Origin: Candidatus Omnitrophota bacterium
Lineage (GTDB): Bacteria > Omnitrophota > Gorgyraeia > Zapsychrales > Zapsychraceae
Assembly (NCBI GenBank): GCA_029261065.1
Contig: JAJDCB010000029.1
Span: 15,448 to 79,447 of the forward strand
DNA length: 64,000 bases
Direction of reading: 5' to 3'
Shown here: positions 9,102 to 25,656 of the stretch, in pieces
Numbering within the stretch: position 1 is the first letter of the stretch
Layout: the number at the start of each line of letters is the position of its first letter
Notes under the pieces: model-generated
The model's input: the letters and a program-made list of their open reading frames with translations, nothing else
Told to the model about the DNA's origin: nothing
Databases searched by the model: none
Translations under genes and position numbers: made by a program

Positions 9102-10571
9102 ATGGATCCGTGGAAAAGTATTTCAGGTTTGTCTCAAGAAGAATGTCGAGCTTCTCAAAGTAAAAAATTACACACCTTTTTAAATCAATATATCTATCCT
9201 TTTAGCCCGCATTACAGAGCACTTTTTGATAAGCATAAAATTAATCCTAAGAAAATTAAAACCATCTCAGATTTAAAGCATATTCCCTTTACATCAAAAG
9301 CAGATTTTGTGGAATCGGATCCAAAAGACTTTGTCTTGCAACCGGATGCCGATAAGATAAAAAAAGCTTGGCCGCTTCCGAAGATATCCCAAATGGCTTT
9401 CCAGAAAATATTTCGTGGTGAGAAATACTTGCAGCATAATCTTTCAAAAGAATTTCGCCCTGTCTTTATGACATTTACAACAGGGACAACGAATAAGCCC
9501 GTGCCATTTTTTTACAGCAACTATGATATTAAAAATTTAGAAACCTCCGGTGCTCGTTTGTTGGGTCTGTTTGATGTGGATCAAAATCAAAAATTCGTTA
9601 ACATGTTTCCCTATGCGCCACATTTGGCTTTTTGGCAAGTTGTTTTAGGTGGGTTTGCTTCTTGTAATTTGATACTCAGTACAGGTGGGGGGAAGGTTAT
9701 GGGGACAGATGGTAATATTGCGGCCATTGAAAAGATGCGACCGACACTTATTTTGGGTGTTCCAAGTTATGTCTATCATGTGCTGCGAACAGCGAAAGAG
9801 CGTGGCATTAACATGGATTATATGAAAAAGATTGTATTAGGGGCTTCAAAGGTAACAACAGCATTTAAGATAAAGCTTGCGCAATTATTAGAGTCTATGG
9901 GAGCGCGTGATGTGTCTGTATTTGGAACTTACGGATTTACAGAGTCGCGAGCAGCATGGGGCGAATGCCCGACAGCGTTAGACATCTCAAGTGGATACCA
10001 TCTTTATTCAGATAAAGAAATTTTTGAGGTTATTGATCCAAAGACAGGGGAAGTTAAAGGAGAAGGTGAAGATGGTGAGTTGGTATATACCTCCCTTGAT
10101 TCGCGCGCGAGCAGTGTTATACGTTATCGCACGGGTGATTTTGTAAAGGGCGGCATTGTTTTTGGTGAATGTCCGCATTGCAAACGTATTACTCTTCGTA
10201 TCTCAAGTGACATTACACGGCTTTCCGATGTGAAAGGTTTAAATCTTTCAAAGGTTAAAGGGTCTTTAGTCAATCTTGGAAATTTTGCAGCGATTTTTTC
10301 TGAACTTGATTTAATTGAAGAATGGCAAATTGAATTGCGTAAAAAAAATAATGATGCTTTTGATATGGATGAGTTAGTTATGTATGTGTGTGCGAAGGAT
10401 AATTGTGTGGAAGAGGAGTTAAGAAACGAAATTGTTAAAGTTATGTCATTAGCAACGGAGGTGTCTCCTAATGAAATTATTTTTGTATCAATGAAAGAGA
10501 TGGTGGCTCGTTTGGAGATTGAAACCGCAAATAAAGAAAAAAGGATTATCGATAATAGGCCAAAGGCTTAG
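9102..10571 (+). CDS. adenylate-forming enzyme, PaaK/F390-synthetase-like acyl-CoA ligase
   Basis: TTGTTNKP matches the PaaK-family P-loop-like motif (SSGTTGKP). About 490 aa. First gene of a beta-oxidation block. Confidence 0.5.
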   Translation: MDPWKSISGLSQEECRASQSKKLHTFLNQYIYPFSPHYRALFDKHKINPKKIKTISDLKHIPFTSKADFVESDPKDFVLQPDADKIKKAWPLPKISQMAFQKIFRGEKYLQHNLSKEFRPVFMTFTTGTTNKPVPFFYSNYDIKNLETSGARLLGLFDVDQNQKFVNMFPYAPHLAFWQVVLGGFASCNLILSTGGGKVMGTDGNIAAIEKMRPTLILGVPSYVYHVLRTAKERGINMDYMKKIVLGASKVTTAFKIKLAQLLESMGARDVSVFGTYGFTESRAAWGECPTALDISSGYHLYSDKEIFEVIDPKTGEVKGEGEDGELVYTSLDSRASSVIRYRTGDFVKGGIVFGECPHCKRITLRISSDITRLSDVKGLNLSKVKGSLVNLGNFAAIFSELDLIEEWQIELRKKNNDAFDMDELVMYVCAKDNCVEEELRNEIVKVMSLATEVSPNEIIFVSMKEMVARLEIETANKEKRIIDNRPKA

Positions 10572-10585
10572 AAGAGGATCACACT

Positions 10586-11872
10586 ATGGAAAAAATAGTT
10601 GTCGTTAATGGAATTCGCACGCCGTTTTGTAAGATGGGAACAGATTTTAATAATCTTTCGGCCCAAGAGTTAGGACGCATTGCCTTAAGAGAGTTGATTG
10701 AACGAACCCCTTTTGAATTGTCTGAATTAGATGAAGTAATCATCGGCTGTGTAGGACAGCCAGCTGATGCTGCTAATTTGGCTCGCGTTGTGGCCCTTTT
10801 AGCAGGGATACCAAACGAAATTCCTGCTTTTACTGTTCATCGTAATTGTGCCTCGGGTATTGAAGCTGCCGTTCAAGCTGCGATAAAAATTAGAGCGAAT
10901 GAGGGGACTTGTTATTATGTCGGTGGAACAGAGTCGATGTCGAACATTCCTTTTTATTTAAAGAAATCTCTGCAAGATCAATTGGCTCTCCTTCAACGGG
11001 CCAAGACAATGGGGCAGCGTCTTAAAATTATGGTGCCTTTTTTTAAGAGATATTTAAATCCGATGGCTTCATTAGAAATTGGTTTGAAACTTGGGTTAAC
11101 TGATCCTGTCTGTGGATTAAATATGGGCCAGACGGCAGAGGTCTTAGCTAAAGAATTTGGAATTACAAGAGAAGAACAGGATGATTTTGCCCTTTTAAGT
11201 CATCAAAGAGCGATTGAGGGACGTGAAGTTTTAAAAGAAGAAATTGTCCCTGTGATTCCTGCTCCCAAATTTAAAAAAGGTGTTGAGTTTGATAATGGAC
11301 CACGTGAAGGACAATCAATGGAAGCGTTACAAAAGTTGCGCCCCTTTTTTGATAGACGCAGTGGGTCGGTGACAGCCGGAAATTCAAGTCAAATTACAGA
11401 TGGTGCAGCGATGTTATTAATCATGACAGAATCCAAGGCGCGCGATCTTAATTTGGAAATTCTTGGAACGATTAAGGAGTTTGCCTTCTCAGGGGTAGAA
11501 CCCAATCGTATGGGCATAGGTCCAGCCCATGCCATTCCAAAAGTTCTAAAAAAAGCTAATATGAAATTATCGGATATTGAAGCTGTCGAAATCAACGAAG
11601 CCTTTGCCGCTCAAGTTCTCGCTTGTCTGCGCGCCCTTGAATCTGATCAATTTACAAAAGATTTTGGTTGCGAGGGATACACAGGTGTCATTGATCCATC
11701 TATTTTAAATGTCAATGGTGGCGCGATTGCATTAGGACATCCCGTTGGAACAACAGGAGCGCGATTGATTTTAACAATGTTGAAACATTTAGAACGTAAA
11801 AATCTTAACACCGGTTTAGTATCGTTGTGTATTGGTGGCGGTCAAGGGGCTGCTGTCATTCTTGAGCGTTAG
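10586..11872 (+). CDS. fadA: acetyl-CoA C-acyltransferase (thiolase)
   Basis: Thiolase signatures: NRNCASGIEA (active-site Cys) and C-terminal CIGGGQGAAVILE. Confidence 0.85.
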   Translation: MEKIVVVNGIRTPFCKMGTDFNNLSAQELGRIALRELIERTPFELSELDEVIIGCVGQPADAANLARVVALLAGIPNEIPAFTVHRNCASGIEAAVQAAIKIRANEGTCYYVGGTESMSNIPFYLKKSLQDQLALLQRAKTMGQRLKIMVPFFKRYLNPMASLEIGLKLGLTDPVCGLNMGQTAEVLAKEFGITREEQDDFALLSHQRAIEGREVLKEEIVPVIPAPKFKKGVEFDNGPREGQSMEALQKLRPFFDRRSGSVTAGNSSQITDGAAMLLIMTESKARDLNLEILGTIKEFAFSGVEPNRMGIGPAHAIPKVLKKANMKLSDIEAVEINEAFAAQVLACLRALESDQFTKDFGCEGYTGVIDPSILNVNGGAIALGHPVGTTGARLILTMLKHLERKNLNTGLVSLCIGGGQGAAVILER

Positions 11873-12117: not shown

Positions 12118-14253
12118 ATGGGTTTAACGTATAACGAGAAAAATAATGTTGGTGTTATTGTTTTTGATCATGACGATTCAAAGGTGAATATACTTAGTTC
12201 AGATGTGATTAAACAGTTATCAGCTGCACTTGATCAGTTAAAGGATAGAGAAGATCTTACGGCGTTGTTAATTGTGAGTATGAAAAAAGATGTTTTTATT
12301 GCTGGGGCAGATATTAAAGAAATTGAAAAGATTGTGGAGCCGGATGATGGTGCAAAGAAAGCCAAGGCCGGACAAGATGTCTTAAACAAAATTGAAGAAT
12401 TACATTTTCCAACGATTGCAGTGATCGACGGTGTTGCTTTAGGGGGCGGCTGTGAGTTAGCCTTAGCGTGTGATTATCGCTTGGCCACATTTAATCCAAA
12501 AGTGCGTATTGGTTTGCCGGAAGTTAACCTTGGTTTTATTCCTGGTTTTGGTGGGACGTATCGATTACCGCGCATTGTTGGATTGCAAGAAGCGCTAAAG
12601 ATGATTTTAGCTGGTCGTCCCATTGACGGTGCTAAAGCGTTAAAGATTGGATTATTTGATAAAATTGTTACCCAAAAAGGATTGGATCAGCATATTGAAG
12701 AGTTTGTAAAAGATATCACAGAGGGGAAGTTAAAAAAATCAAAATATGAACGACGCAAAAAGAAAAAAGGGTTTCCCGGGTTTTTAGATCATAACCCCAT
12801 AGGTAATAGGATCGTTTTTGATCAATCCCGAAAAAATGTCTTAAAGCTAACGAAAGGCTTTTATCCAGCCCCCTTAAAAGCTGTTGATGTTGTTGCCTCT
12901 AATTTTTATATGGATCGTAAACGTGGACTTGCCTTAGAGGCTCGTGGGTTTGGCGAGTTGGCTGTTACGGACATTTCAAAAAATTTGGTTTACATTTTTT
13001 ATTTATCCGAAAAATATCGTAAACTTTCCATTAAGGGAACAGAGTCTATCAAACCAGCTAACATTACGAAATGTGGCGTTCTTGGGGCCGGTGTTATGGG
13101 GGGCGGAATAGCGCAGTTATTAAGTTCAAAAGGAATATGGACACGTATGAAAGATATTAGTCTTGATGCGATTGCAAAAGGTTTTCAGGCCGCTGGAAAA
13201 GTTTATACTCAAGCTGTGAAAAAAAGAAAATTGACTAAGGCGGTTGCTGCCGAACGAATGGCCCATATAACAGGCTCTCTTGATTACTCTGGGTTTGCAA
13301 ATGCTGATTATGTGATTGAAGCTGTTGTGGAGAATATGGATATTAAAAAAAGTGTTTTTAAGGAGTTAAGTGAGAAGTGTTCAGAGCATACGATACTTGC
13401 GAGTAATACCTCCGCATTAAGTGTTACCGAAATGTCTTTAGAAGTTAAAGACCCCTCCAAGGTCATTGGATTTCATTTTTTTAATCCCGTGCATCGTATG
13501 CCGTTAGTTGAAATTATTACAACAGCTCAAACATCCAATGAAACTTTGGTGACTAGTTTAGCTTTAGTGAAACGGTTGGGTAAAACGCCTATTGTTGTTA
13601 AAGATTCCCCTGGATTTATTGTTAATCGTATTTTGTTAGGTTATATCTGCGAAGCTGGACACATTTTAGAGGAGACAGGAGAGTTAGAAGAGGTGGACCT
13701 TGTTATGACAGATTTTGGTATGCCCATGGGGCCTTTTCTTCTTTCAGATGAGGTTGGTTTAGATGTAGGGCTTAAGGTTATGCATATTTTGGAAGAAAGT
13801 TTTGGTAAGCGTTTTAAAGCAGCTTCAATATTTGAGAAGATTTTGGAGACTGGTAAATTGGGAAAAAAATCTGGTAAGGGGTTTTATGATCACACCATAA
13901 AAGATCGACAGGTTAATACAGAGGTTTGGGATTTAATGGATTCACAGTTCACAAGATTGGATAAGCAGGAGTGTTTGGATCGTTTGGTACTAACTATGAT
14001 TAATGAGGCAGCTAAGTGTCTTGAAGAAAAGATTGTCGAAGATCCTGGTGCTATCGATGTAGGTATGATTTTTGGGACAGGCTTTCCTCCTTTTAAGGGT
14101 GGCTTACTTAAATATGCCGATTCCTTAGGAATTGCGCATGTTGTAGATCAATTAGAGAAACTTCAAAAAGAATTAGAGGCTGAACGTTTTGCTCCTTGCC
14201 AATATCTTCTTAATTTAAAAAATCAAAATAAGACTTTTTTTGCAAAAGATTAA
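12118..14253 (+). CDS. fadB: fatty-acid oxidation complex alpha subunit (enoyl-CoA hydratase / 3-hydroxyacyl-CoA dehydrogenase)
   Basis: N-terminal crotonase fold (AGADIKE, DGVALGGGCELALACD). Central NAD-binding GVLGAGVMGGGIA. 711 aa. Confidence 0.85.
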   Translation: MGLTYNEKNNVGVIVFDHDDSKVNILSSDVIKQLSAALDQLKDREDLTALLIVSMKKDVFIAGADIKEIEKIVEPDDGAKKAKAGQDVLNKIEELHFPTIAVIDGVALGGGCELALACDYRLATFNPKVRIGLPEVNLGFIPGFGGTYRLPRIVGLQEALKMILAGRPIDGAKALKIGLFDKIVTQKGLDQHIEEFVKDITEGKLKKSKYERRKKKKGFPGFLDHNPIGNRIVFDQSRKNVLKLTKGFYPAPLKAVDVVASNFYMDRKRGLALEARGFGELAVTDISKNLVYIFYLSEKYRKLSIKGTESIKPANITKCGVLGAGVMGGGIAQLLSSKGIWTRMKDISLDAIAKGFQAAGKVYTQAVKKRKLTKAVAAERMAHITGSLDYSGFANADYVIEAVVENMDIKKSVFKELSEKCSEHTILASNTSALSVTEMSLEVKDPSKVIGFHFFNPVHRMPLVEIITTAQTSNETLVTSLALVKRLGKTPIVVKDSPGFIVNRILLGYICEAGHILEETGELEEVDLVMTDFGMPMGPFLLSDEVGLDVGLKVMHILEESFGKRFKAASIFEKILETGKLGKKSGKGFYDHTIKDRQVNTEVWDLMDSQFTRLDKQECLDRLVLTMINEAAKCLEEKIVEDPGAIDVGMIFGTGFPPFKGGLLKYADSLGIAHVVDQLEKLQKELEAERFAPCQYLLNLKNQNKTFFAKD

Positions 14254-14332: not shown

Positions 14333-14914
14333 ATGGGAATATCAAAACATAAACGTTTAACTCTGCTTTATTATCTTGTGACTTCTTTGGCTGTGCTTGT
14401 TTCTGCCTTGACGATTTATATGCATATCACAAAAGATGATGAGGATTATTCCGTTTTTGTTAATGAGGATGTTGGTGTAAGTATTAAATATCCAACAGAT
14501 TGGGATATTCAAGAATATATTCAAAATACAGTTGTTACTTTTATTTCACCTTATGATAGTGAAATTGATACTGTTTTAGAAAATTGTAATGTTGTTGTAG
14601 AACCTATACCACCAAGAACGACGAACTTAGATGAATATACCGAGCTGATTAAAAATCAAATGAATTCTGTGTTTAAGCATTATATTGAAGTAAAAGAATC
14701 TAAAAGTATCCGCTTTGGAGGGCGCCGTGGTCATCGTTATATATATGCAGGCCGGTCACCTGAAGAAGGGGCCCAACAATATCAGTATATTCTTAACTGG
14801 ACCGTTTATGATGGGCTAGGTTATCAATTCACATGTGTTACTATCGAAGAAGATTTTCCTCTTTTCGAGAGAACATTTAATTCCATGCGAAAGTCGTTTA
14901 AAATTTTAAAATAA
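14333..14914 (+). CDS. hypothetical membrane-anchored protein
   Basis: N-terminal signal-anchor helix, then a soluble domain with no recognisable motif. Confidence 0.3.
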   Translation: MGISKHKRLTLLYYLVTSLAVLVSALTIYMHITKDDEDYSVFVNEDVGVSIKYPTDWDIQEYIQNTVVTFISPYDSEIDTVLENCNVVVEPIPPRTTNLDEYTELIKNQMNSVFKHYIEVKESKSIRFGGRRGHRYIYAGRSPEEGAQQYQYILNWTVYDGLGYQFTCVTIEEDFPLFERTFNSMRKSFKILK

Positions 14915-15967
14915 ATGGTTAGTTTTACTCAAAATATAGATAAACCATCCGAGATACCTTTGTGCCCAGTGTTTGGTGAGTGTGGGGGGTGTAAGTATCA
15001 GGATGTTTTGTACGAAGAAGAGTTGAAAATTAAAGAAACTCAACTTAAAGAGCTATTTAAATCTGATTTCGCTTGTGATGAAAAATTATTTGAACCTATC
15101 GTTGGATCGGTTGATCATTATTGGTATCGTAATCGTTTAGATTTAAAGCTTATTAAAACAAAGGATGATCGTGTATTGATAGGTTTTACACCTTTGTCTG
15201 GACGAGGAATTATCCCTGTAGACGCCTGTCCTATTGCAATGAAACCTATCAGTGAATTTATTCCTGAATTAAAGGTTGAGGCAATTAAGAAATTGGGTCT
15301 TAAATATCGAAGAGCTAATTTAGTCGTAAGGACTGGCGAAGAATTAAAGGTTCGTTGGGGTGGTGTGGGGCGGCGCTCTTGTCAGCTATCCGAAGATGAA
15401 TATTTTTATATAAAAATTAATAATCGGAAAATCTTTTATTCTTTAGATACTTTTTTTCAAGCCAACCTTTCCATTCTTCCTAAATTATTTGAATACTTAA
15501 AAACGCTTCCCTTTATATCAAAGGAGTCGATATTTTTTGATCTTTATGGTGGAGTAGGTTTGTTTTCCGTTGGATTATATGATTTTTTTCAACATGTTGT
15601 CCTCATAGAAGATAGTTCGCAATCGGTAACTCTGGCTAATTATAATAAAACTTACCATCAACTTAATAATTTGACGATTATTGAAGGTCGGGTGGAGGAT
15701 GTATTAAGCCGGCAATTAGACAAATGCTCTCATAATTCATTAGTTGCGATGATTGATCCTCCACGTGCTGGCTTATCAAAAGAGGCAAAGAGTGTTTTAA
15801 CAGAAAAAAAAGCGTTTAAACATTTGCTATATCTATCATGCAATCCTGAGTCATTGGTTCGTGATTTAAAAGAGTTGGGTGAGGCGGGTTGGGCAATGAA
15901 GAAGATTATTCCTTTTGATTTTTTTCCGCGAACGAAACATCTAGAAACGTTGGTTATCTTAGAGTAG
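14915..15967 (+). CDS. RNA (uracil-C5)-methyltransferase, RlmD/RumA/TrmA family (no TRAM domain)
   Basis: N-terminal Fe-S Cys cluster CPVFGECGGCKYQD. SAM motif I DLYGGVGLF. Motif IV region IDPPRAGL. Confidence 0.55.
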   Translation: MVSFTQNIDKPSEIPLCPVFGECGGCKYQDVLYEEELKIKETQLKELFKSDFACDEKLFEPIVGSVDHYWYRNRLDLKLIKTKDDRVLIGFTPLSGRGIIPVDACPIAMKPISEFIPELKVEAIKKLGLKYRRANLVVRTGEELKVRWGGVGRRSCQLSEDEYFYIKINNRKIFYSLDTFFQANLSILPKLFEYLKTLPFISKESIFFDLYGGVGLFSVGLYDFFQHVVLIEDSSQSVTLANYNKTYHQLNNLTIIEGRVEDVLSRQLDKCSHNSLVAMIDPPRAGLSKEAKSVLTEKKAFKHLLYLSCNPESLVRDLKELGEAGWAMKKIIPFDFFPRTKHLETLVILE

Positions 15968-16394: not shown

Positions 16395-18236
16395 ATGAGC
16401 ATGTATGACAAAAATATCAGTAAAGAAAAATTAGCATCGTTAGAATTTGCAGAAGAACAACGCCAAGCCGAATGGACCCATCCTAGCTTTGCTTTACAGT
16501 TATTTCATGGAAATCCGGATTGGTCTTTAATACATCCATTTCCCAGACAATCGGAGGCTGAGAAAAAAGAGGGTGATGAATTATTAAAAAAATTTGAAGA
16601 TTTCTTGCGCCAAAATTTAGATCCTAATGAGGTGGATAAGACAGGGATTATTCCAGAACATGTGATGAAGGGGCTTGGAGAGTTGGGTGGTTTTGCTATT
16701 AAGATTCCAAAAGAATACGGAGGTTTAGGTCAGGGGCAGACAAATTATAATCGTATCATGCATTTGGTATCTAGTTATTGTGGTTCAACGGCCGTGTTAA
16801 TGAGTGCTCATCAAAGTATTGGAGTTCCTCAACCTTTAAAATTGTTTGGGACAGATGAACAAAAGAAAAAATATTTTCCTATGTTTGCTAAGGGTGCTGT
16901 TTCTGCTTTTGCTCTCACAGAACCTACGGCAGGTTCTGATCCAAGACAGATGTTAACAACCGCAACTCCTATTGAGGATGGAAAGTTTTTTCTTATCAAT
17001 GGAGAAAAATTGTGGTGTACTAATGGTCCAGCGGCTGATGTTATTGTTGTTATGGCGGTAACACCTCCGAAGATTAAAAAGGGCAAAGAGATTAAGCAAA
17101 TTACGGCGTTTATAGTTGACACCAACTCTCCAGGTTTTGAAGTGGTTCAACGTTGTAGATTTATGGGGTTAAATGGTATTCAAAATGGTTTGTTACGTTT
17201 TAAAGATTTAAAAGTTCCACGTGAAAATATAATTTTAGGTGAGGGAGAAGGTTTAAAGTTAGCTTTAACAACACTAAACACAGGGCGATTAACATTGCCT
17301 GCGGCATCCGTTGGGATTAGTAAATGGTGTTTGTATGTATCGCGTGAGTGGTCATCGCAAAGAAAGCAATGGGGGGCGAATATTGGTGAACATGAAAGTG
17401 TTGCTTTGAAGTTAGGTTATATGGCGAGTCATACCTTTGCTATGGATGCGATGACATGGATCACCGCTGCGATGGCTGATGATAAATCCAAAGATATTCG
17501 TATTGAAGCTGCGATTGCAAAATATTTTTGCACCTTTCATGCATGGATCATTGTTGATGAAACCCTTCAAATCAGAGGGGGCCAAGGTTATGAAACGCAT
17601 GATTCTTTAAAATCGCGCGGCATGGAAAGTTGGCCGGTAGAGCGCGTTTTAAGGGATGTTCGTATCAATTTAATTATTGAAGGAACAACAGAAATTATGC
17701 ATCTGTTTATTGCGCGAGAAGCGTTGGATCCTTATTTAAGTAAAGTTATTCCTTTAATGAGTCCGAAAACAAATATCTTTAAGAAATTGGGAATTGTCTT
17801 TGGAATGGGCTTAGGTTATTTTAAGTTATGGTTACCTAATTTAACGCAAGTCGATGAGATCGATGAAACCTTAACAGAACATATGGTCTATGTGCAGGAT
17901 GTCAGTAAACGTTTAGGTCGAGAAATTTTCCACAATATGACACGTTATCAAAAGAAACTCGAATCTCATCAAGCGATCCTAAATCGTATTGTTGATATTG
18001 GAACTGAGTTATTTGCGATGGCGACAACCTGCTCGTATGCCGATATGCTTATGAAAGAGGATAAGGATAAAGAAGGCGCTCTTGAACTTGCTGATCTTTT
18101 TTGTAAAGCAGCAAGAAAACGCATTGATGCAGCCTTTGATGAAAATTCTAATAATTTTGATAAAGAAAGTATTGCCGTTTCAAAACAAGTTTTGTCTGGA
18201 AAATTGAAGTGGATGGAAACAGAAATAATGACATAA
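16395..18236 (+). CDS. acyl-CoA dehydrogenase (long-chain type, about 610 aa)
   Basis: ACAD N, middle and C domains (YGGLGQ, FALTEPTAGSDP, TNGPAADV, IRGGQGY) plus a C-terminal extension. Confidence 0.8.
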   Translation: MSMYDKNISKEKLASLEFAEEQRQAEWTHPSFALQLFHGNPDWSLIHPFPRQSEAEKKEGDELLKKFEDFLRQNLDPNEVDKTGIIPEHVMKGLGELGGFAIKIPKEYGGLGQGQTNYNRIMHLVSSYCGSTAVLMSAHQSIGVPQPLKLFGTDEQKKKYFPMFAKGAVSAFALTEPTAGSDPRQMLTTATPIEDGKFFLINGEKLWCTNGPAADVIVVMAVTPPKIKKGKEIKQITAFIVDTNSPGFEVVQRCRFMGLNGIQNGLLRFKDLKVPRENIILGEGEGLKLALTTLNTGRLTLPAASVGISKWCLYVSREWSSQRKQWGANIGEHESVALKLGYMASHTFAMDAMTWITAAMADDKSKDIRIEAAIAKYFCTFHAWIIVDETLQIRGGQGYETHDSLKSRGMESWPVERVLRDVRINLIIEGTTEIMHLFIAREALDPYLSKVIPLMSPKTNIFKKLGIVFGMGLGYFKLWLPNLTQVDEIDETLTEHMVYVQDVSKRLGREIFHNMTRYQKKLESHQAILNRIVDIGTELFAMATTCSYADMLMKEDKDKEGALELADLFCKAARKRIDAAFDENSNNFDKESIAVSKQVLSGKLKWMETEIMT

Positions 18237-18315
18237 TTTTCACCCGGCGTCTTTTTGACGTTGAGGTGTTATCTCTGCCTTTTTAGCGGCGGTGAGTTAT
18301 AAGGCTTTAGTGACC

Positions 18316-20403
18316 ATGTCTGGAATAACCTCTTTTCTACATAGTTTAAATCTTATCAAACAAATTCCAATTTTTGCTAAACTCAATTGGTTTGAACAGC
18401 AAAAGATTGCGCGTAAGTCTGTCATTGTTGAGTATAAAAAGGGAGAGACTGTTCGTCGTGTGGGGGATCCCGCGGATTATTTTTATTGTTTGATAACGGG
18501 CCGTTTACAAGCGTTCACGTTAAACAATGAAAGAATCAAAGAGAATGTAGAATTTATTCATCGGGGCATGCATTTTGGAATTATTTCTGTATTTACGGGA
18601 GAAACACACTCCTTAACATTTGAGGCGATTAATGACTCCATTATTTTAAAAATTGCTAAAGCAGATTTCCATTCTATCCTCAAATCGATTCCTACCCTTG
18701 GATTAGAATTTAGTCAAAGTTTATCACAGCGTGTTCGAAGTCATCGGGAGGGTCAGAAATCTATTTTCGAAAGTACGATTATCTCGATCTACAGCCCTGT
18801 CATAGGAACGGGAAGTTCCACTTATGCGATGAATTTTGCATTAAGTTTACAAATTGAAACCAATAAAAAAGTTATGCTTCTTAATATCCATACGGCTCAG
18901 AATTTGGACGATAAATCAGAGTCTACTAAGGATAAGCCTGTTCCTAAATGGAAGAAGCCACCTATTGAGTTAAAAGACATTGTTGGCGATCATGATAAAA
19001 TTTTTGATAGCATTATTAAAGAAGAGTTAGCCATAGATTTGCTTAATGTGATGTTTGATGCCTCAGACAGCGATTTAAAGAAACAAATTAGTCCTTTGGT
19101 AAGTACTTTGGTTGGAGATTATCATTATGTTATTGTTGATTTGCCGAATGATATGGATGATTTTGTTTTGCAAACGCTGACACAGTCGGATTATGTTCAT
19201 CTGTTATCTTTAGATCGGAAAAAAGATTTAGAGCAAATGCGTTCGGTCATTGATCGTTTAGAATTGACATTTAAAGAAAGGTTTAATGAAGATAGGCTTC
19301 GTGTAATTATCCGAGGGATTCATGATCAGGTTTATTTGTCCTTTGAGGATATTAGTAAAGTTATCGATTTTAAAGTCGATCATGTTATTCCGCATATTCA
19401 TGCTGATCAGCTCAAGGAAGATATTCATTCCTCTAGTGTTACGGTTTATCGAAGTGATGAAAATAGCGAATATAATAAAGTCCTTAGACGTATTGCCCGT
19501 CAAGTTGGCGGCGTTATGGTGGGTGTTGTCTTAGGCGGTGGCGCGGCTTTAGGCATTGCTCATGTGGGAGTTATTCGAGTTTTAGAAGAAGAGAACATCC
19601 CTGTTGATATGGTTGTGGGTAGTAGTATGGGGGCTTTAATTGGAGCGTTATGGGCGACGGGAAAAAATGCGAAAGAATTAGAGGAGATTGCTCGTGAATT
19701 TGAGAAGAAAGGTAATATGTTAAAATTGTTCGACCCGCCATTATTTCCCATCTCAGGACTAATTAAAGGTAATGCGATTAAGCGATGGTTAGCTAAACAT
19801 TTAGGAACTAAAACATTTTATAGTTGCGATATTCCTTTTAAAGTTGTTTCATATGATTTAATACGAAGAGAAGAGTTGATCCTTGAGCGAGGTTCCTTGG
19901 TGGATGCTGTTCGTGAAAGTATTGCCATTCCAGGTGTCCTTAAGCCTGTCTTGACTCAAGATCGTGTGATTATTGATGGGGGCGTGCTCAATCCTTTACC
20001 GACGAATGTTCTTGCTGGTCGTGGCATTAAAAAAATTATTGCTATCAATGTTCTTCAATCTCCAGATGAAGTTTCTCAAGGTCATGACCTCCATCAACGT
20101 CGAGAAGAAGAGAAGTTGTCGCGTTCATTTCTAAAGGCACCATTAAGTTATATATCTCATCGTATTATGAGAACGTTAGCCAAACCTTTCAAACCAAATA
20201 TTTCTGACATTTTAGTACGAACCCTTCAAGCTTCCGAATACGTCATCGCCGAACAGAGCGCCCAACAAGCCGATGTCTTAATCCATCCCGATCTTGTAGG
20301 CATCGACTGGTTCGAACTCTATCGTGTTGATGATCTCATCCGCAAAGGTGAGGAGGCGACCCGCGCTTTAATTCCCGATATTAAAGCTTTAGTGAAGAAA
20401 TAA
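18316..20403 (+). CDS. cNMP-binding domain / degenerate ParA-MinD-like domain / patatin-like phospholipase (NTE-like)
   Basis: N-terminal CAP-family cNMP-binding fold (IPIFAKL...YKKGETVRRVGDPADYFYCLITGRLQ). Middle IISIYSPVIGTGSSTYAMNFALSL resembles the Walker A region of MinD/CpaE but lacks GKT. C-terminal patatin motifs GGGAALGIAHVG, GSSMGA (GXSXG), DGGVLNPLP (DGG). The ORF opens at GTG 18292. Confidence 0.7.
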   Translation: MSGITSFLHSLNLIKQIPIFAKLNWFEQQKIARKSVIVEYKKGETVRRVGDPADYFYCLITGRLQAFTLNNERIKENVEFIHRGMHFGIISVFTGETHSLTFEAINDSIILKIAKADFHSILKSIPTLGLEFSQSLSQRVRSHREGQKSIFESTIISIYSPVIGTGSSTYAMNFALSLQIETNKKVMLLNIHTAQNLDDKSESTKDKPVPKWKKPPIELKDIVGDHDKIFDSIIKEELAIDLLNVMFDASDSDLKKQISPLVSTLVGDYHYVIVDLPNDMDDFVLQTLTQSDYVHLLSLDRKKDLEQMRSVIDRLELTFKERFNEDRLRVIIRGIHDQVYLSFEDISKVIDFKVDHVIPHIHADQLKEDIHSSSVTVYRSDENSEYNKVLRRIARQVGGVMVGVVLGGGAALGIAHVGVIRVLEEENIPVDMVVGSSMGALIGALWATGKNAKELEEIAREFEKKGNMLKLFDPPLFPISGLIKGNAIKRWLAKHLGTKTFYSCDIPFKVVSYDLIRREELILERGSLVDAVRESIAIPGVLKPVLTQDRVIIDGGVLNPLPTNVLAGRGIKKIIAINVLQSPDEVSQGHDLHQRREEEKLSRSFLKAPLSYISHRIMRTLAKPFKPNISDILVRTLQASEYVIAEQSAQQADVLIHPDLVGIDWFELYRVDDLIRKGEEATRALIPDIKALVKK

Positions 20404-20526: not shown

Positions 20527-21156
20527 GTGTTTATTTTGAAAAAATTTCATTTCAAAACGTCAGAAGTTCTCCAAGGTGATTATGAACTCAAGCGTATAAA
20601 TTTGATGATCGTCTTTCAAGTCAATTGTCCGGGATGCTTTTTGTATTCTTTGCCGCTAGTTAATCGTGTGAATGAGAAATATGCAGAGAAGGGGCTTCAG
20701 GTTTTGGGGTTATCAACAGCGTTTGAGGATTTTGAATTTAATACTGTTGATAATACGCGTTTGTTACTTAATGAAGGTGAGGTTGTAGGGGAAACGAAGA
20801 AGGCGTTGAGTCAAATGGGGCATGAAAAGTTTCCCCTTCAAATGGATTTTCCTGTTGCTTTTGATTTATTAGGAAAAGGAAGCGAAATTTTTGATCAAGA
20901 GGATGCCTTGATTGTTTCCGAACTTGTGCCAGATTTTCAAGCTCGAACAGAGGAAGAGCAAAAAAAGATTGTTACAGAAATTGATAAGCATTTAAAAGGG
21001 AGAAAATTAGCCTCTTATAGTTTTACCGTTAACGATATGCGAGGTACACCCTCCTGGTTTCTTTTTCGTGAAGATCTAAGTATTGATGAACTGTGGTTTG
21101 GACATAAAACGGAAGAGGATGTAATGGCGTTATTGGATTCTTGTATTACCCGTTAG
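20527..21156 (+). CDS. thioredoxin-fold protein (CPGC motif)
   Basis: VNCPGCF CXXC motif in a redoxin-like context. GTG start. Confidence 0.35.
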   Translation: MFILKKFHFKTSEVLQGDYELKRINLMIVFQVNCPGCFLYSLPLVNRVNEKYAEKGLQVLGLSTAFEDFEFNTVDNTRLLLNEGEVVGETKKALSQMGHEKFPLQMDFPVAFDLLGKGSEIFDQEDALIVSELVPDFQARTEEEQKKIVTEIDKHLKGRKLASYSFTVNDMRGTPSWFLFREDLSIDELWFGHKTEEDVMALLDSCITR

Positions 21157-21175
21157 GAAAGTTAGGAGAGTCATT

Positions 21176-22576
21176 ATGAAAGTTACATTTTTAGGAGCCA
21201 GTCAGAATGTCACGGGTTCAAGGTTTCTTTTGGAAACAGAATTTTCTCGTATTCTTATAGATTGCGGACTTTTTCAAGAACGAGATTTACGTGATCGTAA
21301 CTGGGAAAAATTTCCTGTCGATCCAAAAAGTATTTCTCATCTCCTCTTAACACATGCTCACATTGATCATTGTGGGTATTTACCACGTTTTGTCAAAGAT
21401 GGGTTTCAAGGAAAAATTATTTGTACGCCTCCCACCGCTGATATAGCCAAAATTAGTTTGATTGATACCGCACACATTCAAGAATCAGATGCCGCTTACA
21501 AAAAGAAACGGCATAAAAAAGAAAAACGTAAGGGACGTCATCCTGAGGTTCCTTTATTTACAGAAGTTGATACATTTCGCGTGTTTTCTCATTTTAGAAC
21601 CCATGATTATGAAGTGACCTTTGATGTGACTAAAGATATTAAAGCCACTTATTATGATTCTGGTCATATTTTAGGTGCCGCATCGATTGAATTAAAGATT
21701 AAAGAGGGGGGCAAAGAAATTATTTGTATTTTTTCTGGAGACATAGGCCGTTGGGATCGTCCGATTCTTAATGACCCTCATCTTTTTAAACAAGCAGATT
21801 ATGTGTTTATGGAAGCCACTTATGGTAATCGTGTTCATGAAGATGCCATCGCTTCTATTGATAAATTGGAGCAAGTCATCAACGCTACTGATAAATCAGG
21901 TGGCAATGTGGTTGTCCCAACATTTTCTATTGGACGAGCGCAGGAGCTTTTGTATGATTTAAACATCCTTGTTAAAGAAAAACGTATTCCTCAATTAATG
22001 ACTTTTGTTGATAGCCCGATGGCAATGAAGATAACAGAGGTCTTTCGTCGTTATTCTCAATATTTTGATGAAGAAGCGCAAGAGTTCCTAGACCAATATG
22101 AATCTTTATTTGATTTTCCTTTATTAAAATTTACAAAGACCTCAGATGAGTCAAAGGCCATTAATCATATTAAGGGAACCGCTGTTATTTTGGCTGGATC
22201 TGGAATGTGTACAGGCGGCCGGGTTAAACATCATTTGCTTAATAATATTTCAAGGCCCGAGAGTACGGTTTTATTTGTTGGTTATCAGGCTCAAGGAACA
22301 TTAGGACGTCAGATTCTGGAACGCCCTGAAAAGGTACGGATTTTGGGTAAAAGGGTGGATGTTTTATCTAAAATTGAAAAAATTAATGGTTTATCTGCTC
22401 ATGCCGATAAAAATGAACTTGCCCAGTGGCTCAAATCTTTCAAGCCACCAGCCAAGAAAGTATTTATCATTCATTCTGAAAAAGAAGCCGCGGAAGGGTT
22501 TGTAAATGCCGTAAAAGAGGAGATTAGCACAGATTTTCATATTCCAAAATATTTAGAAGAAGTTGAAATTGGTTAG
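21176..22576 (+). CDS. MBL-fold beta-CASP ribonuclease (CPSF/RNase J-like)
   Basis: HAHIDHCG metallo-beta-lactamase motif plus beta-CASP-like region. About 465 aa. Confidence 0.65.
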   Translation: MKVTFLGASQNVTGSRFLLETEFSRILIDCGLFQERDLRDRNWEKFPVDPKSISHLLLTHAHIDHCGYLPRFVKDGFQGKIICTPPTADIAKISLIDTAHIQESDAAYKKKRHKKEKRKGRHPEVPLFTEVDTFRVFSHFRTHDYEVTFDVTKDIKATYYDSGHILGAASIELKIKEGGKEIICIFSGDIGRWDRPILNDPHLFKQADYVFMEATYGNRVHEDAIASIDKLEQVINATDKSGGNVVVPTFSIGRAQELLYDLNILVKEKRIPQLMTFVDSPMAMKITEVFRRYSQYFDEEAQEFLDQYESLFDFPLLKFTKTSDESKAINHIKGTAVILAGSGMCTGGRVKHHLLNNISRPESTVLFVGYQAQGTLGRQILERPEKVRILGKRVDVLSKIEKINGLSAHADKNELAQWLKSFKPPAKKVFIIHSEKEAAEGFVNAVKEEISTDFHIPKYLEEVEIG

Positions 22577-22657
22577 CTTATTTTCTAATTGACAATATAG
22601 TTTTCCAAGGTAAAATGACTCAATCAATTCAATATCAATCATTTATGAGGGGGCGTC

Positions 22658-22809
22658 ATGAAAGCAAAGAAATTATTATCGTTATTTGTAGGCCTAATTG
22701 TGCTAGTTGCTTTAGCAAGTGGATGTGAAAAAAAGAGTGATTTAGAGAAAAGTGCTGATAAAGCGGGAAAAGATGCTAGTAAAGCTATTGATGGTGCTTT
22801 AAACAACTA
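22658..22809 (+). CDS. small secreted lipoprotein (50 aa), not in the ORF track
   Basis: ATG 22658 preceded by GAGGGGG. Signal peptide with lipobox LASGC. Lys-rich mature part. Followed by a strong terminator. Confidence 0.4.
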
Positions 22810-22837
22810 AGAATTTCCAGATTTTGTTATAGAATTA

Positions 22838-22897
22838 GAGGTGATGGTCGATTTTAACGTTATTTTTAAGGTTAAAACGATCATCACCTTTTTTTAA
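22838..22897 (+). terminator. rho-independent terminator
   Basis: aggtgatggtcg ... cgatcatcacct forms an about 12-bp stem with an inner ttttaac/gttaaaa stem, followed by TTTTTTT. Confidence 0.6.
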
Positions 22898-22961
22898 TTT
22901 TTTTATAAAATGATGGTATAATTAACCTTCCATAAATTACGAATTTTAAAAAGAAATACAG

Positions 22962-23615
22962 ATGAATAAAAAAGACAATAAATTTAAATATGTCCTAGTC
23001 GAATTAGCCCATCATTTGCCTTATTCGATTTTTGGGGTAACGGTTGGGATCATTGCTATGGGGGTGTTGACGTTTTTTGCAACGCTGATGAAGGCTGAAG
23101 ATATGCTTCCGCATGCCTCTGAGGAACTCTTTCATGTGTTTCATCCTGCTCACGTTTTATTTAGTGCCGTTGCCACCACAGCGATGTTTTGGAAGCATGA
23201 GAAGAATATGATTAAAGCGATCATTATTGGATTTTTGGGATCCATTACGATATGCGGTATTAGCGATGTTTTTTTTCCATTTGCTGGTGGGCTCATTCTT
23301 GGTCAAGAGATGCATTTGCATGTTTGTATTCTAGAGGAGCCAGGGCTTGTGTTACCATTTGCCGTAGTCGGTGTGATCGCGGGACTTGCTGTGACCAAAA
23401 GTTTTGAGAAATCGACGGAATATTCCCATTCGGCGCATGTTTTTATTAGTAGTGCGGCATCCATTTTATATTTGTTAAGTTACGGTCTTCAAGATTGGAC
23501 TCATGCGGTAGGTGGCGTTTTTCTTGTCACTATCTTTGCTGTTATGATTCCTTGTTGCGCGAGTGATATTGCCCTTCCCATCTGCTGTGCGCACGTCAAT
23601 TGTGATCATGAATAA
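22962..23615 (+). CDS. His/Cys-rich polytopic membrane protein
   Basis: About 6 TM segments, several conserved-looking His (HHLPYS, HVFHPAH, HLHVC). C-terminus CCASDIALPICCAHVNCDHE. Its stop overlaps the hemC-fusion start (ATGAATAA). Confidence 0.35.
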   Translation: MNKKDNKFKYVLVELAHHLPYSIFGVTVGIIAMGVLTFFATLMKAEDMLPHASEELFHVFHPAHVLFSAVATTAMFWKHEKNMIKAIIIGFLGSITICGISDVFFPFAGGLILGQEMHLHVCILEEPGLVLPFAVVGVIAGLAVTKSFEKSTEYSHSAHVFISSAASILYLLSYGLQDWTHAVGGVFLVTIFAVMIPCCASDIALPICCAHVNCDHE

Positions 23616-25656
23616 ACCTCTCAAACAAATCAAGGTCGGTACCAGAGGCAGTCCGCTTGCCCTTGTGCAGATTCAAGAGATTAAAAATCTTATAGACAAT
23701 GAAGGATTTTCTCTTGATTGGCAGTCCATCACTTTTCAAACAGCAGGTGACCAAGATAAAGTAACACCCCTTGTTGATCAACTACCTGATGATTTTTTTA
23801 CCAATACCATTGATCAAGCTCTCCTCGATAAAAAAATTAATTTGGCCATCCATAGTGCCAAAGATCTAGCAGAATGCCTTACTCAGGGATTAAAGATATT
23901 TGCACTTACCGAAAGTAAAGATAATAGCGATTGTTATGTTGGGAAAACAAAAATTAAAGATTTAGCTCAAGGGGCTAAGATTGGAACAAGTAGTCATCTA
24001 AGACAAGAAGCTTTAAAAAATTTAAATCCTAGAATTGAAATTGTGAACATTCGTGGAACCATTCAAGAGCGGTTAGAGTTGCTTGAGCAGGGAGAGGTTG
24101 ATGGGATTATTGTGGCAACCATTGCTTTAAAGCGATTAGGATTAGAGGATCGTATTAGCGAAATCATGCCATGGGAGACCACAGCTCTACAAGGTCAGTT
24201 GGCTGTTGTCGGACGAGCTGACGATCTTGAATTAGAAAAAATATTTTCCACAATCGATGTTCGCGAAGATTATGGAACCGTCACCCTCCTTGGCGCAGGT
24301 CCAGGGGATCCTGAATTGATTACGGTTAAGGCTATTAAAGCATTGGGGCGTTCTGATTGTGTTTTTTATGATTATCTGATTCATCCATCTCTATTAGATT
24401 ACTGTCCGCAAGCTAATAAAACTTATGTGGGAAAAAGAAAAGGCAAGCACTCCATGCCGCAGGCTGAACTTTCACGCCTTCTAAGAGATGCCGCTTTTTT
24501 AGGAAAAAATATCGTCAGGCTTAAAGGAGGCGATCCTTTTATTTTTGGACGAGGCGCTGAGGAGTTTGACTATTTAAGATCTTATCACATTCCAATCGAG
24601 GTGATACCTGGGATTAGTTCAGCTACAGGTATTCCTGCAAGTTTAACGTTGCCTCTGACATCACGTGACGAATCGAATTCCGTGGCTTTCATTAGTGGGC
24701 ATAAAAAAGATGAAGCCCAGGATGCGAATTCTTTATTAGAGATTCCTTGTGTGGATACGATAGTCTTTTTAATGGGATTAACAAAACTAGATATCATCTT
24801 AAAATCACTTCTTAAGGCGAATTGGAAAGAGGAGACATCAATCGTTATCATTTCCAAAGGGACATGTATCGATGAAGATATTCTCATTGGAACACTAAAA
24901 GAGATTAAAAATACATTAGACTCTCATCCCGTTATGCCACCTGCTCTTATTATTGTTGGAAAAAGTGTGGGGCATTGGAAAACATATTATCAACAGAAAC
25001 AAAAAATCCTTTTTACAGGGACGAATCCAGACAAATATCGCTCAAAAGGACAAATCATTCATTGGCCTATGATTGAAATAAAAGAACATGTTTTAGATCA
25101 GAAAGAAGCAGCAAGGATCAAGAATAAAATGGATCAATATCATGTTTTAATACTGACGAGTCGATTTGCCGTTCGTTATTTTTTCAAATGGCTAAAAGAA
25201 CAGAATGTGGGGGTTGATCAGATAAAGAAAATGACGATTTGCGTTATTGGTCAAGTAACGCAGAGAAGTTTAAAAGAATTTAATCTTGATGCTGGTATTT
25301 TACCTTCTGTTGAAACAAGTGAAGGTTTATTTGAGAGCCTCGATGAGGCTATTGATCTTAAGGGAGTAGAAATTTTGTTTCCGCGTTCCTCTTTATCAAA
25401 TCCATATCTAAAAGAAAAGTTAACGAAAAGTGGTGCTTTAGTTGATGAAATGACGATATATGAAAATTTAAAGCCAGAGAAGAAAGATTTGCCTCAAATG
25501 ACGATGGATGCGATTTTTATGACTAGTCCTTCACAAGTAAAGAATTTCTTAGAAGATTATGGTACAATCCCTAAAACTTGGAAAATTTACAGCAAAGGTC
25601 CACACACAGCTAAGTCATTAAAAGAGCAGGGTTATGAAAGTGAGTTATTAAATTGA
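23608..25656 (+). CDS. tri-domain fusion: HemC-like (domains 1-2 only) / uroporphyrinogen-III C-methyltransferase (CobA) / uroporphyrinogen-III synthase (HemD)
   Basis: HemC motifs GTRGSPLALVQ and IGTSSHLRQ, ending near ...AVVGRADDLELE. Then CobA motifs LLGAGPGDPELITVKA and VVRLKGGDPFIFGRG. Then a HemD-like C-terminus (VLILTSRFAVRYF). Confidence 0.7.
   Translation: MNKPLKQIKVGTRGSPLALVQIQEIKNLIDNEGFSLDWQSITFQTAGDQDKVTPLVDQLPDDFFTNTIDQALLDKKINLAIHSAKDLAECLTQGLKIFALTESKDNSDCYVGKTKIKDLAQGAKIGTSSHLRQEALKNLNPRIEIVNIRGTIQERLELLEQGEVDGIIVATIALKRLGLEDRISEIMPWETTALQGQLAVVGRADDLELEKIFSTIDVREDYGTVTLLGAGPGDPELITVKAIKALGRSDCVFYDYLIHPSLLDYCPQANKTYVGKRKGKHSMPQAELSRLLRDAAFLGKNIVRLKGGDPFIFGRGAEEFDYLRSYHIPIEVIPGISSATGIPASLTLPLTSRDESNSVAFISGHKKDEAQDANSLLEIPCVDTIVFLMGLTKLDIILKSLLKANWKEETSIVIISKGTCIDEDILIGTLKEIKNTLDSHPVMPPALIIVGKSVGHWKTYYQQKQKILFTGTNPDKYRSKGQIIHWPMIEIKEHVLDQKEAARIKNKMDQYHVLILTSRFAVRYFFKWLKEQNVGVDQIKKMTICVIGQVTQRSLKEFNLDAGILPSVETSEGLFESLDEAIDLKGVEILFPRSSLSNPYLKEKLTKSGALVDEMTIYENLKPEKKDLPQMTMDAIFMTSPSQVKNFLEDYGTIPKTWKIYSKGPHTAKSLKEQGYESELLN

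Follow-up and report, generated by a model that had tools for sequence, protein, structure and literature searches.

The stretch of DNA analyzed here (the window) comprises 64,000 nucleotides of contig JAJDCB010000029.1 from a Candidatus Omnitrophota bacterium and contains, on its forward strand, the gene for a predicted lipase in which a cyclic-nucleotide-binding (CNB) fold, a ParA/MinD fold, and an RssA/PlpD-type patatin hydrolase follow one another in a single chain of 695 amino acids (aa). The catalytic dyad of the patatin module appears to be intact, while both N-terminal folds, which are normally small-molecule switches, appear to lack their canonical ligand contacts. The gene and its parts are as follows, with positions counted along the window.

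18316..20403, + strand: coding sequence of the three-domain protein, 695 aa plus stop (from the list of open reading frames)
18343..18750, + strand: N-terminal CNB fold, aa ~10-145 (Pfam, PDB sequence matches, and model)
18574..18627, + strand: degenerate phosphate-binding cassette FGIISVFTGETHSLTFEA, canonical Glu replaced by Ile89 and canonical Arg by His98
18763..19509, + strand: central ParA/MinD (CpaE/TadZ-like) fold, aa ~150-398 (weak AAA_31 match, AlphaFold2 model, Foldseek, and profile matches)
18790..18840, + strand: Walker A remnant YSPVIGTGSSTYAMNFA, aa 159-175, aligned to xSxKGGVGK[ST]Txx(N)LA
18871..18891, + strand: switch-I (Walker A') remnant VMLLNIH, Asp of the canonical hhhhDxD replaced by Asn190
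19120..19161, + strand: Walker B-like strand YHYVIVDLPNDMDD, Asp275 kept and DLPN near-invariant
19516..20397, + strand: RssA/YchK/PlpD-type patatin module, aa 401-694 (Pfam, NCBIfam, and PlpD matches)
19534..19554, + strand: oxyanion-hole loop GGGAALG, aa 407-413, with G408-G413 invariant and G407 near-invariant in 112 orthologs
19618..19632, + strand: nucleophile elbow GSSMG, aa 435-439, with catalytic Ser437; G435, S436, S437, and G439 invariant in the same orthologs
19975..19983, + strand: DGG motif, aa 554-556, with catalytic Asp554, likewise invariant

The coding sequence is a single open reading frame (ORF) on the + strand, with the same span as in the original prediction, a reading of the bare sequence that preceded this analysis. 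Since all of the 112 orthologs used for residue counts (53-66% identity) have N-termini that line up with the ATG at 18316, this codon is the likely start; an in-frame GTG at 18292, 24 nt before it, is probably not. An identical protein (P0001) is already present in public collections. The three-domain layout that had been proposed is confirmed. In the domain search suggested as a check, PF00027 and PF01734 score over their cut-offs and AAA_31 under its own, and similarity to ParA/MinD is found through profile and fold comparison. The full-length AlphaFold2 model (pLDDT 84.1, pTM 0.75) matches three separate PDB families, and no single PDB chain spans more than one of its domains (TMq <= 0.32, Foldseek). 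Neither a transmembrane-like segment nor a signal peptide was found in the 695-aa protein, whose most hydrophobic 19-mer is the first strand of the patatin fold. Among the orthologs, mean pairwise identity reaches 68% in the patatin module, compared with 62% in the CNB fold and 51% in the ParA-like one. Both N-terminal folds are still constrained, and they are therefore functional parts of the protein rather than decaying linkers.

A whole-protein search returned 562 clusters; among the best 120 of these, nearly all members are full-length (~690-700 aa) and most of the named ones belong to Candidatus Omnitrophota. With a profile of the middle domain, 55 representatives of at least 600 aa were recovered, 52 of which carry both cNMP_binding and Patatin and 29 of which pass AAA_31 at E <= 1e-3. 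When the ortholog alignment was used to scan one genome per GTDB species, relatives were detected in 253 genomes. The loci of the best 80, a sample biased to the window clade, come from Omnitrophota metagenome-assembled genomes (MAGs), some labelled 'uncultured Planctomycetales' and one labelled 'Lysobacterales' on a 4-kb contig. A second lineage, clade 2 (member P0163), is 32% identical to the window protein, and a search from P0163 gives only Omnitrophota names. So far, the lipase family is almost confined to this uncultured phylum. The 64-kb window holds neither a second copy of the gene nor the clade-2 gene block. In databases, family members are named only 'patatin-like phospholipase family protein' or 'NTE family protein', and some are tagged AAA_31 or BcsQ by annotation pipelines; no paper on a conserved fusion of CNB, ParA/MinD, and patatin was found in the literature searched.

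In the C-terminal module, Pfam Patatin (PF01734) matches aa 404-566 (E 3.1e-29, 103 bits against a cut-off of 27.7), and aa 401-694 cover positions 5-298 of the 301 positions of the NCBIfam RssA model (E 3.6e-33, under the equivalog cut-off). The closest solved protein by sequence is PlpD (5fqu, E 7e-29), and Foldseek recovers the patatin fold, with matches to PlpD (5fya, E 6.7e-18, TMt 0.83), patatin-17, CapV, and CapE. The three motifs that had been read as those of a patatin (GGGAALG, GSSMG, and DGG) are intact at the positions listed above, and their catalytic Ser and Asp do not vary among the orthologs. GxSxG and DGG are also both present in 120 of 120 clade-2 proteins. Judged from these motifs, the Ser437-Asp554 dyad is intact. 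The oxyanion-hole loop has Leu where the SGGAARG of PlpD has Arg; among 51 superfamily representatives, this position is L in 19, F in 14, R in 10, and M in 4. An ATGL-like neutral-lipid substrate, considered on account of the missing Arg, was dropped because clade-2 proteins that also lack this residue adjoin a glycerophosphodiesterase gene, which points to phospholipid; the loop motif is uninformative as to substrate.

The N-terminal domain is a CNB fold by several measures. Pfam cNMP_binding matches aa 38-123 (E 1.9e-16, 60.2 bits against a cut-off of 27.5), sequence matches in the PDB include PKG, PKA-R, and MlotiK1 as well as NtcA, DNR, and PycTIR (8jsk), and the full-length model superimposes on the MlotiK1 CNB domain with a TMt of 0.88 and an rmsd of 1.9 (Foldseek). 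In pairwise HMMER alignments, the phosphate-binding cassette FGIISVFTGETHSLT aligns to the FGE(x)9R[ST]AT of PKG, PKA-R, and Toxoplasma CNB domains, and the register of these alignments to true binders is unambiguous. The cassette reads FGI....HSL and thus lacks the canonical Glu/Arg motif of a cyclic nucleotide (cNMP) sensor. At the position of the ribose-binding Glu, the orthologs have I (91), V (19), or M (2) and never Glu; at the position of the cyclic-phosphate Arg they have H (110) or Q (2) and never Arg. His also occupies the Arg position in 47 of the 51 superfamily representatives and in 120/120 clade-2 proteins, with no Arg in either set, and the cassette Glu is kept in all 120 of the latter.

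With both cassette residues lost, gating by cAMP or cGMP in the canonical manner is unlikely. As far as the cassette can tell, canonical binding of these nucleotides is unlikely in the window clade and doubtful in the rest of the family. The original prediction had named this domain a cNMP sensor and had not mentioned its degenerate pocket, which is new in the follow-up analysis. Its fold stands, by the Pfam and MlotiK1 matches; its role as a sensor is not supported, as the pocket Arg and Glu are both gone, and neither is the second-messenger-gated release of fatty acids that had been suggested. Taking the cNMP domain at face value was rejected on the alignment of the cassette to true binders and on the ortholog counts. 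The His held at the cyclic-phosphate position instead points to a CNB domain that is either re-specified or ligand-free.

For the middle domain, the Pfam AAA_31 match (aa 154-295, E 2.7e-5) reaches 24.6 bits, under the cut-off of 27, and other family members pass this model (best E 4.5e-17). Because the sequence evidence alone is marginal, the fold was tested by structure prediction. The AlphaFold2 model obtained for aa 143-400 from 19 family members (pLDDT 83.5, pTM 0.85) has as its top PDB match in Foldseek the ParA-family ATPase 3ea0 (E 4e-11, TM 0.66-0.71), and the top matches are exclusively of the ParA/MinD class (MinD 4v02, Soj, PF-32, FlhG, FleN, TadZ 3fkq, and NifH; TM 0.6-0.7). The domain profile finds 3ea0 (7e-9), PF-32, and Soj among PDB sequences and aligns the G-[TS]-G-S-S-T of the family onto G-V-G-K-[ST]-T, and YHYVVVDLP onto the YDYIIIDSPP of Soj. 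Against 1.84 billion representative proteins, the profile yields 1958 matches at E <= 1e-3, in which the next relatives beyond the tri-domain proteins are ~400 aa long with canonical KGGVGKTT and DLDLQ motifs. Among 49 such relatives, 30 carry Response_reg and 3 carry TadZ_N. These receiver and TadZ_N N-terminal domains indicate that the nearest outside relatives are of the CpaE/TadZ type, and the description of this segment as MinD/CpaE-like was therefore right, in agreement with the structural and PDB profile matches.

The nucleotide-binding motifs of this fold are eroded. Within VIGTGSST (aa 162-169), the Walker lysine is replaced by Ser167 and the signature lysine by Val162; with no signature lysine in register, the segment does not form a deviant Walker A motif either. 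The Walker lysine position is S in 102, C in 3, N in 3, K in 2, and T and G in 1 ortholog each, a family-wide loss that no sequencing error explains. Nor is the switch-I Asp kept, its position being N in 80, S in 18, and D in 3 of the 112 orthologs where canonical relatives read VALVDLDLQ. The Walker B strand YHYVIVD275LP keeps its Asp (109/112) and P277 (112/112), and G166, S168, and T169 are conserved. The loss of GK[ST] and the label of pseudo-ATPase, both already proposed, are supported by this alignment, and the middle domain is probably a maintained pseudo-ATPase.

Elsewhere in the family, a full GK[ST]T together with the Asp occurs in 16 of the 51 superfamily representatives and in 34 of the 120 clade-2 proteins. 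Clade-2 P-loops range from intact GKTT (34/120) to erased (e.g., SHPHNIFQF), and the Walker B Asp is replaced by Arg in 73/120. As read from these motif states, the nucleotide motifs have been lost separately in at least two lineages, whereas the catalytic dyad has never been lost. Because clade 2 has kept the fold and the dyad through a separate loss of the motifs, ATP binding would be dispensable for the family. It was also observed that the Walker A of 3ea0, a ParA-family ATPase from Chlorobium tepidum, is itself without the lysine (SAKGGDGGSCIAANFA); lysine-less P-loops may be commoner in the CpaE/TadZ-like branch than the label 'ATPase' suggests.

Upstream of the lipase gene, the following genes were assigned from Pfam.

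9102-10571, + strand: AMP-binding enzyme
10586-11872, + strand: thiolase
12118-14253, + strand: FadB-like hydratase/dehydrogenase
14333-14914, + strand: PsbP-like gene (PsbP E 1.8e-7, PsbP_2 E 4e-7)
14333-15967, + strand: the PsbP-like gene together with the tRNA U5-methyltransferase gene that follows it
16395..18236, + strand: VLCAD/ACAD9-like acyl-CoA dehydrogenase (ACAD), 613 aa (Acyl-CoA_dh_N/M/1 and ACAD9-ACADV_C)

The ACAD gene ends 79 bp upstream of the lipase gene on the same strand. Downstream, the window has a 209-aa unknown, a beta-CASP nuclease, a 217-aa unknown, a hemC/TP_methylase/hemD fusion, hemB, and hemL. The upstream order is identical in three orthologous loci (L001, L003, and L004; 55-61% identity). 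Among 67 informative loci, i.e., those with at least 2.2 kb of upstream sequence, an ACAD gene lies directly upstream on the same strand in 42, and of the 49 loci whose upstream sequence extends over 9 kb or more, 19 have thiolase, FadB, and ACAD together on that side.

In clade 2, the lipase gene sits in a different arrangement, found in 5/5 loci: glycerol kinase (glpK), glycerophosphodiester phosphodiesterase (GDPD), the lipase gene, thiolase, 3-hydroxyacyl-CoA dehydrogenase (3HCDH), enoyl-CoA hydratase (ECH), electron transfer flavoprotein (ETF) beta/alpha, one further gene, a FadD-like ligase, and an alpha/beta-hydrolase, of which GDPD, thiolase, and ETF may not be present everywhere. The upstream part of this block runs lepA-lepB-...-PilZ-YajQ-PilZ and then glycerol kinase. 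Two unrelated arrangements thus both join the lipase to the catabolism of fatty acids and the glycerol backbone, which is the strongest evidence for a functional link; the gene order of the window clade alone could be inherited. The link to beta-oxidation, which had been read from the window only, is accordingly borne out as conserved, by the adjacent ACAD gene in 42/67 loci of the window clade and by the cluster in 5/5 loci of clade 2.

Several observations on these neighborhoods stand on their own. The PsbP-like gene holds a conserved place between the FadB-like and methyltransferase genes of a non-photosynthetic phylum (in the window, L001, L003, L004, and most loci), and the PsbP-methyltransferase pair stays beside the lipase gene in 11 loci without beta-oxidation genes. 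The AMP-binding enzyme is short (489 aa) and matches only the second half of the Pfam model, weakly (E 1.8e-11, positions 122-374), yet is conserved at 56-67% identity across orthologous blocks, and it could be something other than a standard FadD. At 20527-23615 (+), the window has extra genes between the lipase and hemCD in comparison with many orthologous loci, where hemCD follows within ~2.2 kb. These are the 209-aa ORF, which has no Pfam or PADLOC match, the beta-CASP/RMMBL nuclease gene (21176-22576, +), and the 217-aa ORF, which has no Pfam match and is conserved downstream in ~15 other loci (55-71% identity). The fusion at 23563-25656 (+), also present in L001 and L004, encodes one 697-aa protein made of porphobilinogen deaminase, TP_methylase, and HemD, followed by hemB and hemL. 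In clade 2, a conserved trio, PilZ-YajQ-(small ORF)-PilZ, is found in 5/5 loci (L086-L090) just ahead of the lipid cluster, ~2.5-4 kb upstream from the lipase gene; PilZ and YajQ are families that bind cyclic di-GMP or nucleotides, and the trio may point to another second messenger at work in this neighborhood. In one Omnitrophota MAG (L087, 18038-20031 onward), a gene with a called product of 14,954 residues lies just downstream of the clade-2 lipid cluster.

At the scale of the window, ORFs of at least 110 aa lie almost all on the + strand over the first 39 kb. Every 2-kb bin of positions 1-64000 has a positive GC skew, so that cumulative skew climbs monotonically from 0.19 to 5.73, a pattern consistent with one replichore and a strong leading-strand gene bias. 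G+C is 33-41%. The only second-messenger enzyme seen among the window genes scanned is a PAS-GAF-GGDEF diguanylate cyclase; it and a sigma-54 gene lie at 37953-39401 (+) and 49500-50888 (-).

Domain identities, motif states, family distribution, and gene neighborhoods are direct observations, and it appears fairly probable from them that the protein is a regulated cytoplasmic acyl hydrolase that feeds beta-oxidation, with both of its N-terminal switch folds devoid of canonical ligand contacts. Soluble and of the RssA/PlpD patatin type, it would act as a lipase, phospholipase, or lysophospholipase that frees fatty acids from glycerolipids, and these would pass to the ligase and the beta-oxidation enzymes encoded nearby; in clade 2, the neighboring GDPD and glycerol kinase genes suggest that phospholipids could be deacylated as far as glycerophosphodiesters. 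The N-terminal half would form a regulatory or scaffolding module derived from two folds that normally act as small-molecule switches. In this module, the ParA-like domain may be a nucleotide-independent platform for dimerization or docking, a role kept from ATP-dependent ancestors, and the CNB-like domain may be an autoinhibitory lid or the binder of a ligand other than a cNMP. The substrate, the direction of regulation, the dimerization, and the physiological link to beta-oxidation are what we infer in this scheme.

A number of points weigh against this account. An ACAD gene is not directly upstream in 25 of the 67 informative loci; of these, 11 have the methyltransferase directly upstream and no beta-oxidation gene within 10 kb, and 14 have neither ACAD nor methyltransferase directly upstream. 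The conserved block also includes genes of unrelated function (the tRNA methyltransferase, the PsbP-like gene, and heme synthesis), so that some of the adjacency may reflect inherited order rather than an operon. Promoter-like signals near the gene number 18, compared with 16.0 +/- 3.4 in shuffled sequence, and terminator-like signals 2, compared with 3.9; the counts equal those of shuffled sequence and are uninformative as to co-transcription. With regard to the regulatory folds, the invariance of His98, G166, S168, and T169 makes a ligand or phosphate site possible, and 'dead' may then mean 're-specified'. The claim that the lipase gene terminates a beta-oxidation block is overstated: the ACAD gene is only 79 bp upstream, but the PsbP-like and methyltransferase genes interrupt the block, and the loci without an adjacent ACAD gene depart from it.

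Re-specification could go further than this. There is a limited chance that the protein is a phylum-specific switch of lipid catabolism, in which the His-bearing CNB domain would sense some metabolite that is not a cyclic nucleotide, such as an acyl-CoA, a nucleoside, or a product of a lipid head group, and turn the patatin module on or off through nucleotide-independent dimerization of the pseudo-ParA domain. If so, the CNB fold would gain a new ligand class and a pseudo-ParA domain would be newly used as an enzyme regulator, which might bear on the consumption of lipids by host-dependent Omnitrophota.

The departures from beta-oxidation synteny also count in favor of an RssA/NTE-like lysophospholipase that acts on the cell's own phospholipids in membrane-lipid homeostasis, with its place beside beta-oxidation genes a mere matter of gene order. 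The module is of the RssA/PlpD type and carries the KEGG name 'NTE family', the gene persists in the 11 methyltransferase-adjacent and 14 other loci just described, and the syntenic block mixes unrelated functions, hemCD lying <=1.8 kb downstream of the lipase gene in 29 of 58 loci. This explanation is nevertheless unlikely. At only 32% identity and in another gene order, clade 2 again places the lipase with beta-oxidation genes, glycerol kinase, GDPD, a FadD-like ligase, and ETF in 5/5 loci, which is hard to attribute to inherited order alone; the two readings also overlap, as products of phospholipid turnover could still be catabolized.

It is improbable that fatty-acid release is turned on by cAMP or cGMP bound to the N-terminal domain. 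Such gating has the confident CNB fold in its favor, as well as the precedent of cyclic-nucleotide-controlled patatin enzymes in CBASS (CapV and CapE filaments are among the PDB matches), and the Glu retained throughout clade 2 (120/120) makes weak or altered nucleotide binding conceivable there. However, the Arg that pairs with the phosphate is found in none of the 112 orthologs, 51 representatives, or 120 clade-2 proteins, and the ribose Glu position of the window clade is hydrophobic in 112/112, in a register that leaves no ambiguity. No adenylate or guanylate cyclase was seen among 21 proteins from part of the window scanned with Pfam, which is weak evidence.

An equally improbable alternative is that the middle domain still works as a nucleotide switch, in which an NTP held by non-canonical residues would drive dimerization and thereby control the lipase. 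G166, S168, T169, and the Walker B Asp275 are conserved, the full GK[ST]T with Asp in 16/51 representatives and 34/120 clade-2 proteins implies that the ancestor was probably ATP-regulated, and the best structural match, 3ea0, has KGGDGGS and is likewise without the Walker lysine. On the other hand, the window clade has jointly lost both lysines (Walker and signature) and the switch-I Asp, and most clade-2 P-loops are wholly erased while the domain is kept, which argues that nucleotide binding is not what is conserved. An anti-phage abortive-infection effector of the Pycsar/CBASS kind, pairing a nucleotide sensor with a membrane-destroying phospholipase, is very hard to credit and was rejected: PycTIR 8jsk is among the PDB sequence matches and PADLOC reports weak hits to the CNB part of the PycTIR effector (E 1.6e-7) and to phospholipase effectors (E 1.4e-4), but these reflect shared domains only, the nucleotide pocket is eroded, the adjacent genes include no cyclase partner, and the gene keeps a fixed syntenic place among housekeeping genes across a family found in 253 species genomes, unlike mobile defense islands.

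For the regulated acyl hydrolase favored here, patatin lipases with N-terminal sensor domains and atypical ParA proteins of the CpaE/TadZ type are both already known. The family provides a natural series of ParA-like P-loops, with an intact GK[ST]T at one end and complete erasure at the other, in which the fold and the lipase dyad are retained, and it is suited to the question of what role a ParA/MinD fold plays once ATP binding is gone. In Omnitrophota, the lipase is likely the entry enzyme of a conserved route of fatty-acid degradation.

Among known systems, the C-terminal 295 aa have the Gly-rich loop, GxSxG, and DGG in common with RssA/YchK and PlpD (COG1752; KEGG K07001, 'NTE family protein'). 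CNB and ParA-like domains are absent from both RssA, which consists of one domain, and PlpD, a type Vd autotransporter that is secreted. Of the family models RssA fits best, and of the structures PlpD; public annotations read 'NTE family protein'. Eukaryotic NTE proteins (PNPLA6/NTE, Swiss-cheese, and PNPLA7) likewise have CNB folds ahead of a patatin esterase, which may belong to the same broad subfamily. CNB domains joined to NTE-type esterases are not new in bacteria either: McCue et al. (2000; listed among the references of PMC2447327) reportedly described them for the mycobacterial Rv2565, Rv3239c, and Rv3728. Rv2565 is listed as an esterase (PMC10865251), and bacterial homology to NTE's C-terminal part has been noted (PMC9025805).

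NTE deacylates phosphatidylcholine to glycerophosphocholine (PMC9025805), the kind of product beside which the GDPD gene adjoining clade-2 genes may be set. At ~1300 aa, NTE is anchored in the membrane by its N-terminus and has three CNB sites, whose role is still largely inferred (PMC9025805). Compared with this description of NTE, the window protein has one CNB fold, no hydrophobic anchor, and a ParA/MinD fold in between. 'NTE-like', as it had first been called, thus applies loosely, in the sense of a bacterial RssA/PlpD-type patatin with a CNB fold, and not to the layout, which has one such fold instead of three and no transmembrane segment.

With CpaE/TadZ-type proteins (e.g., 3fkq and 3ea0), the window protein shares a sensor-like N-terminal domain followed by a ParA-like domain, as well as the hhhhDLP Walker B strand, and the atypical P-loop of 3ea0 (KGGDGGS) parallels its own. 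It differs in having a CNB fold instead of a receiver as the N-terminal domain and in the C-terminal patatin fusion, and most CpaE-type proteins keep KGGVGKTT and DLDLQ. No tad/cpa pilus genes occur near the lipase gene, whose neighbors are beta-oxidation, tRNA-modification, and heme genes.

With regard to the CNB fold, the cAMP-independent PKA regulatory subunit of Trypanosoma (6h4g), one of the structural matches, likewise carries cassette substitutions that abolish cAMP binding. CooA, CprK, NtcA, and the CNB homology domain of KCNH channels (CNBHD) are CNB folds re-specified for other ligands in which the domain is still regulatory. To our knowledge, the replacement of Arg by His is not a signature of any of these groups or of 6h4g. 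The window protein is not a member of the eukaryotic NTE, CpaE/TadZ, or Pycsar/CBASS effector families; it lacks the defining motifs of a cNMP sensor and of a ParA/MinD ATPase, and Pfam score, dyad motifs, and fold assign it to the patatin family.

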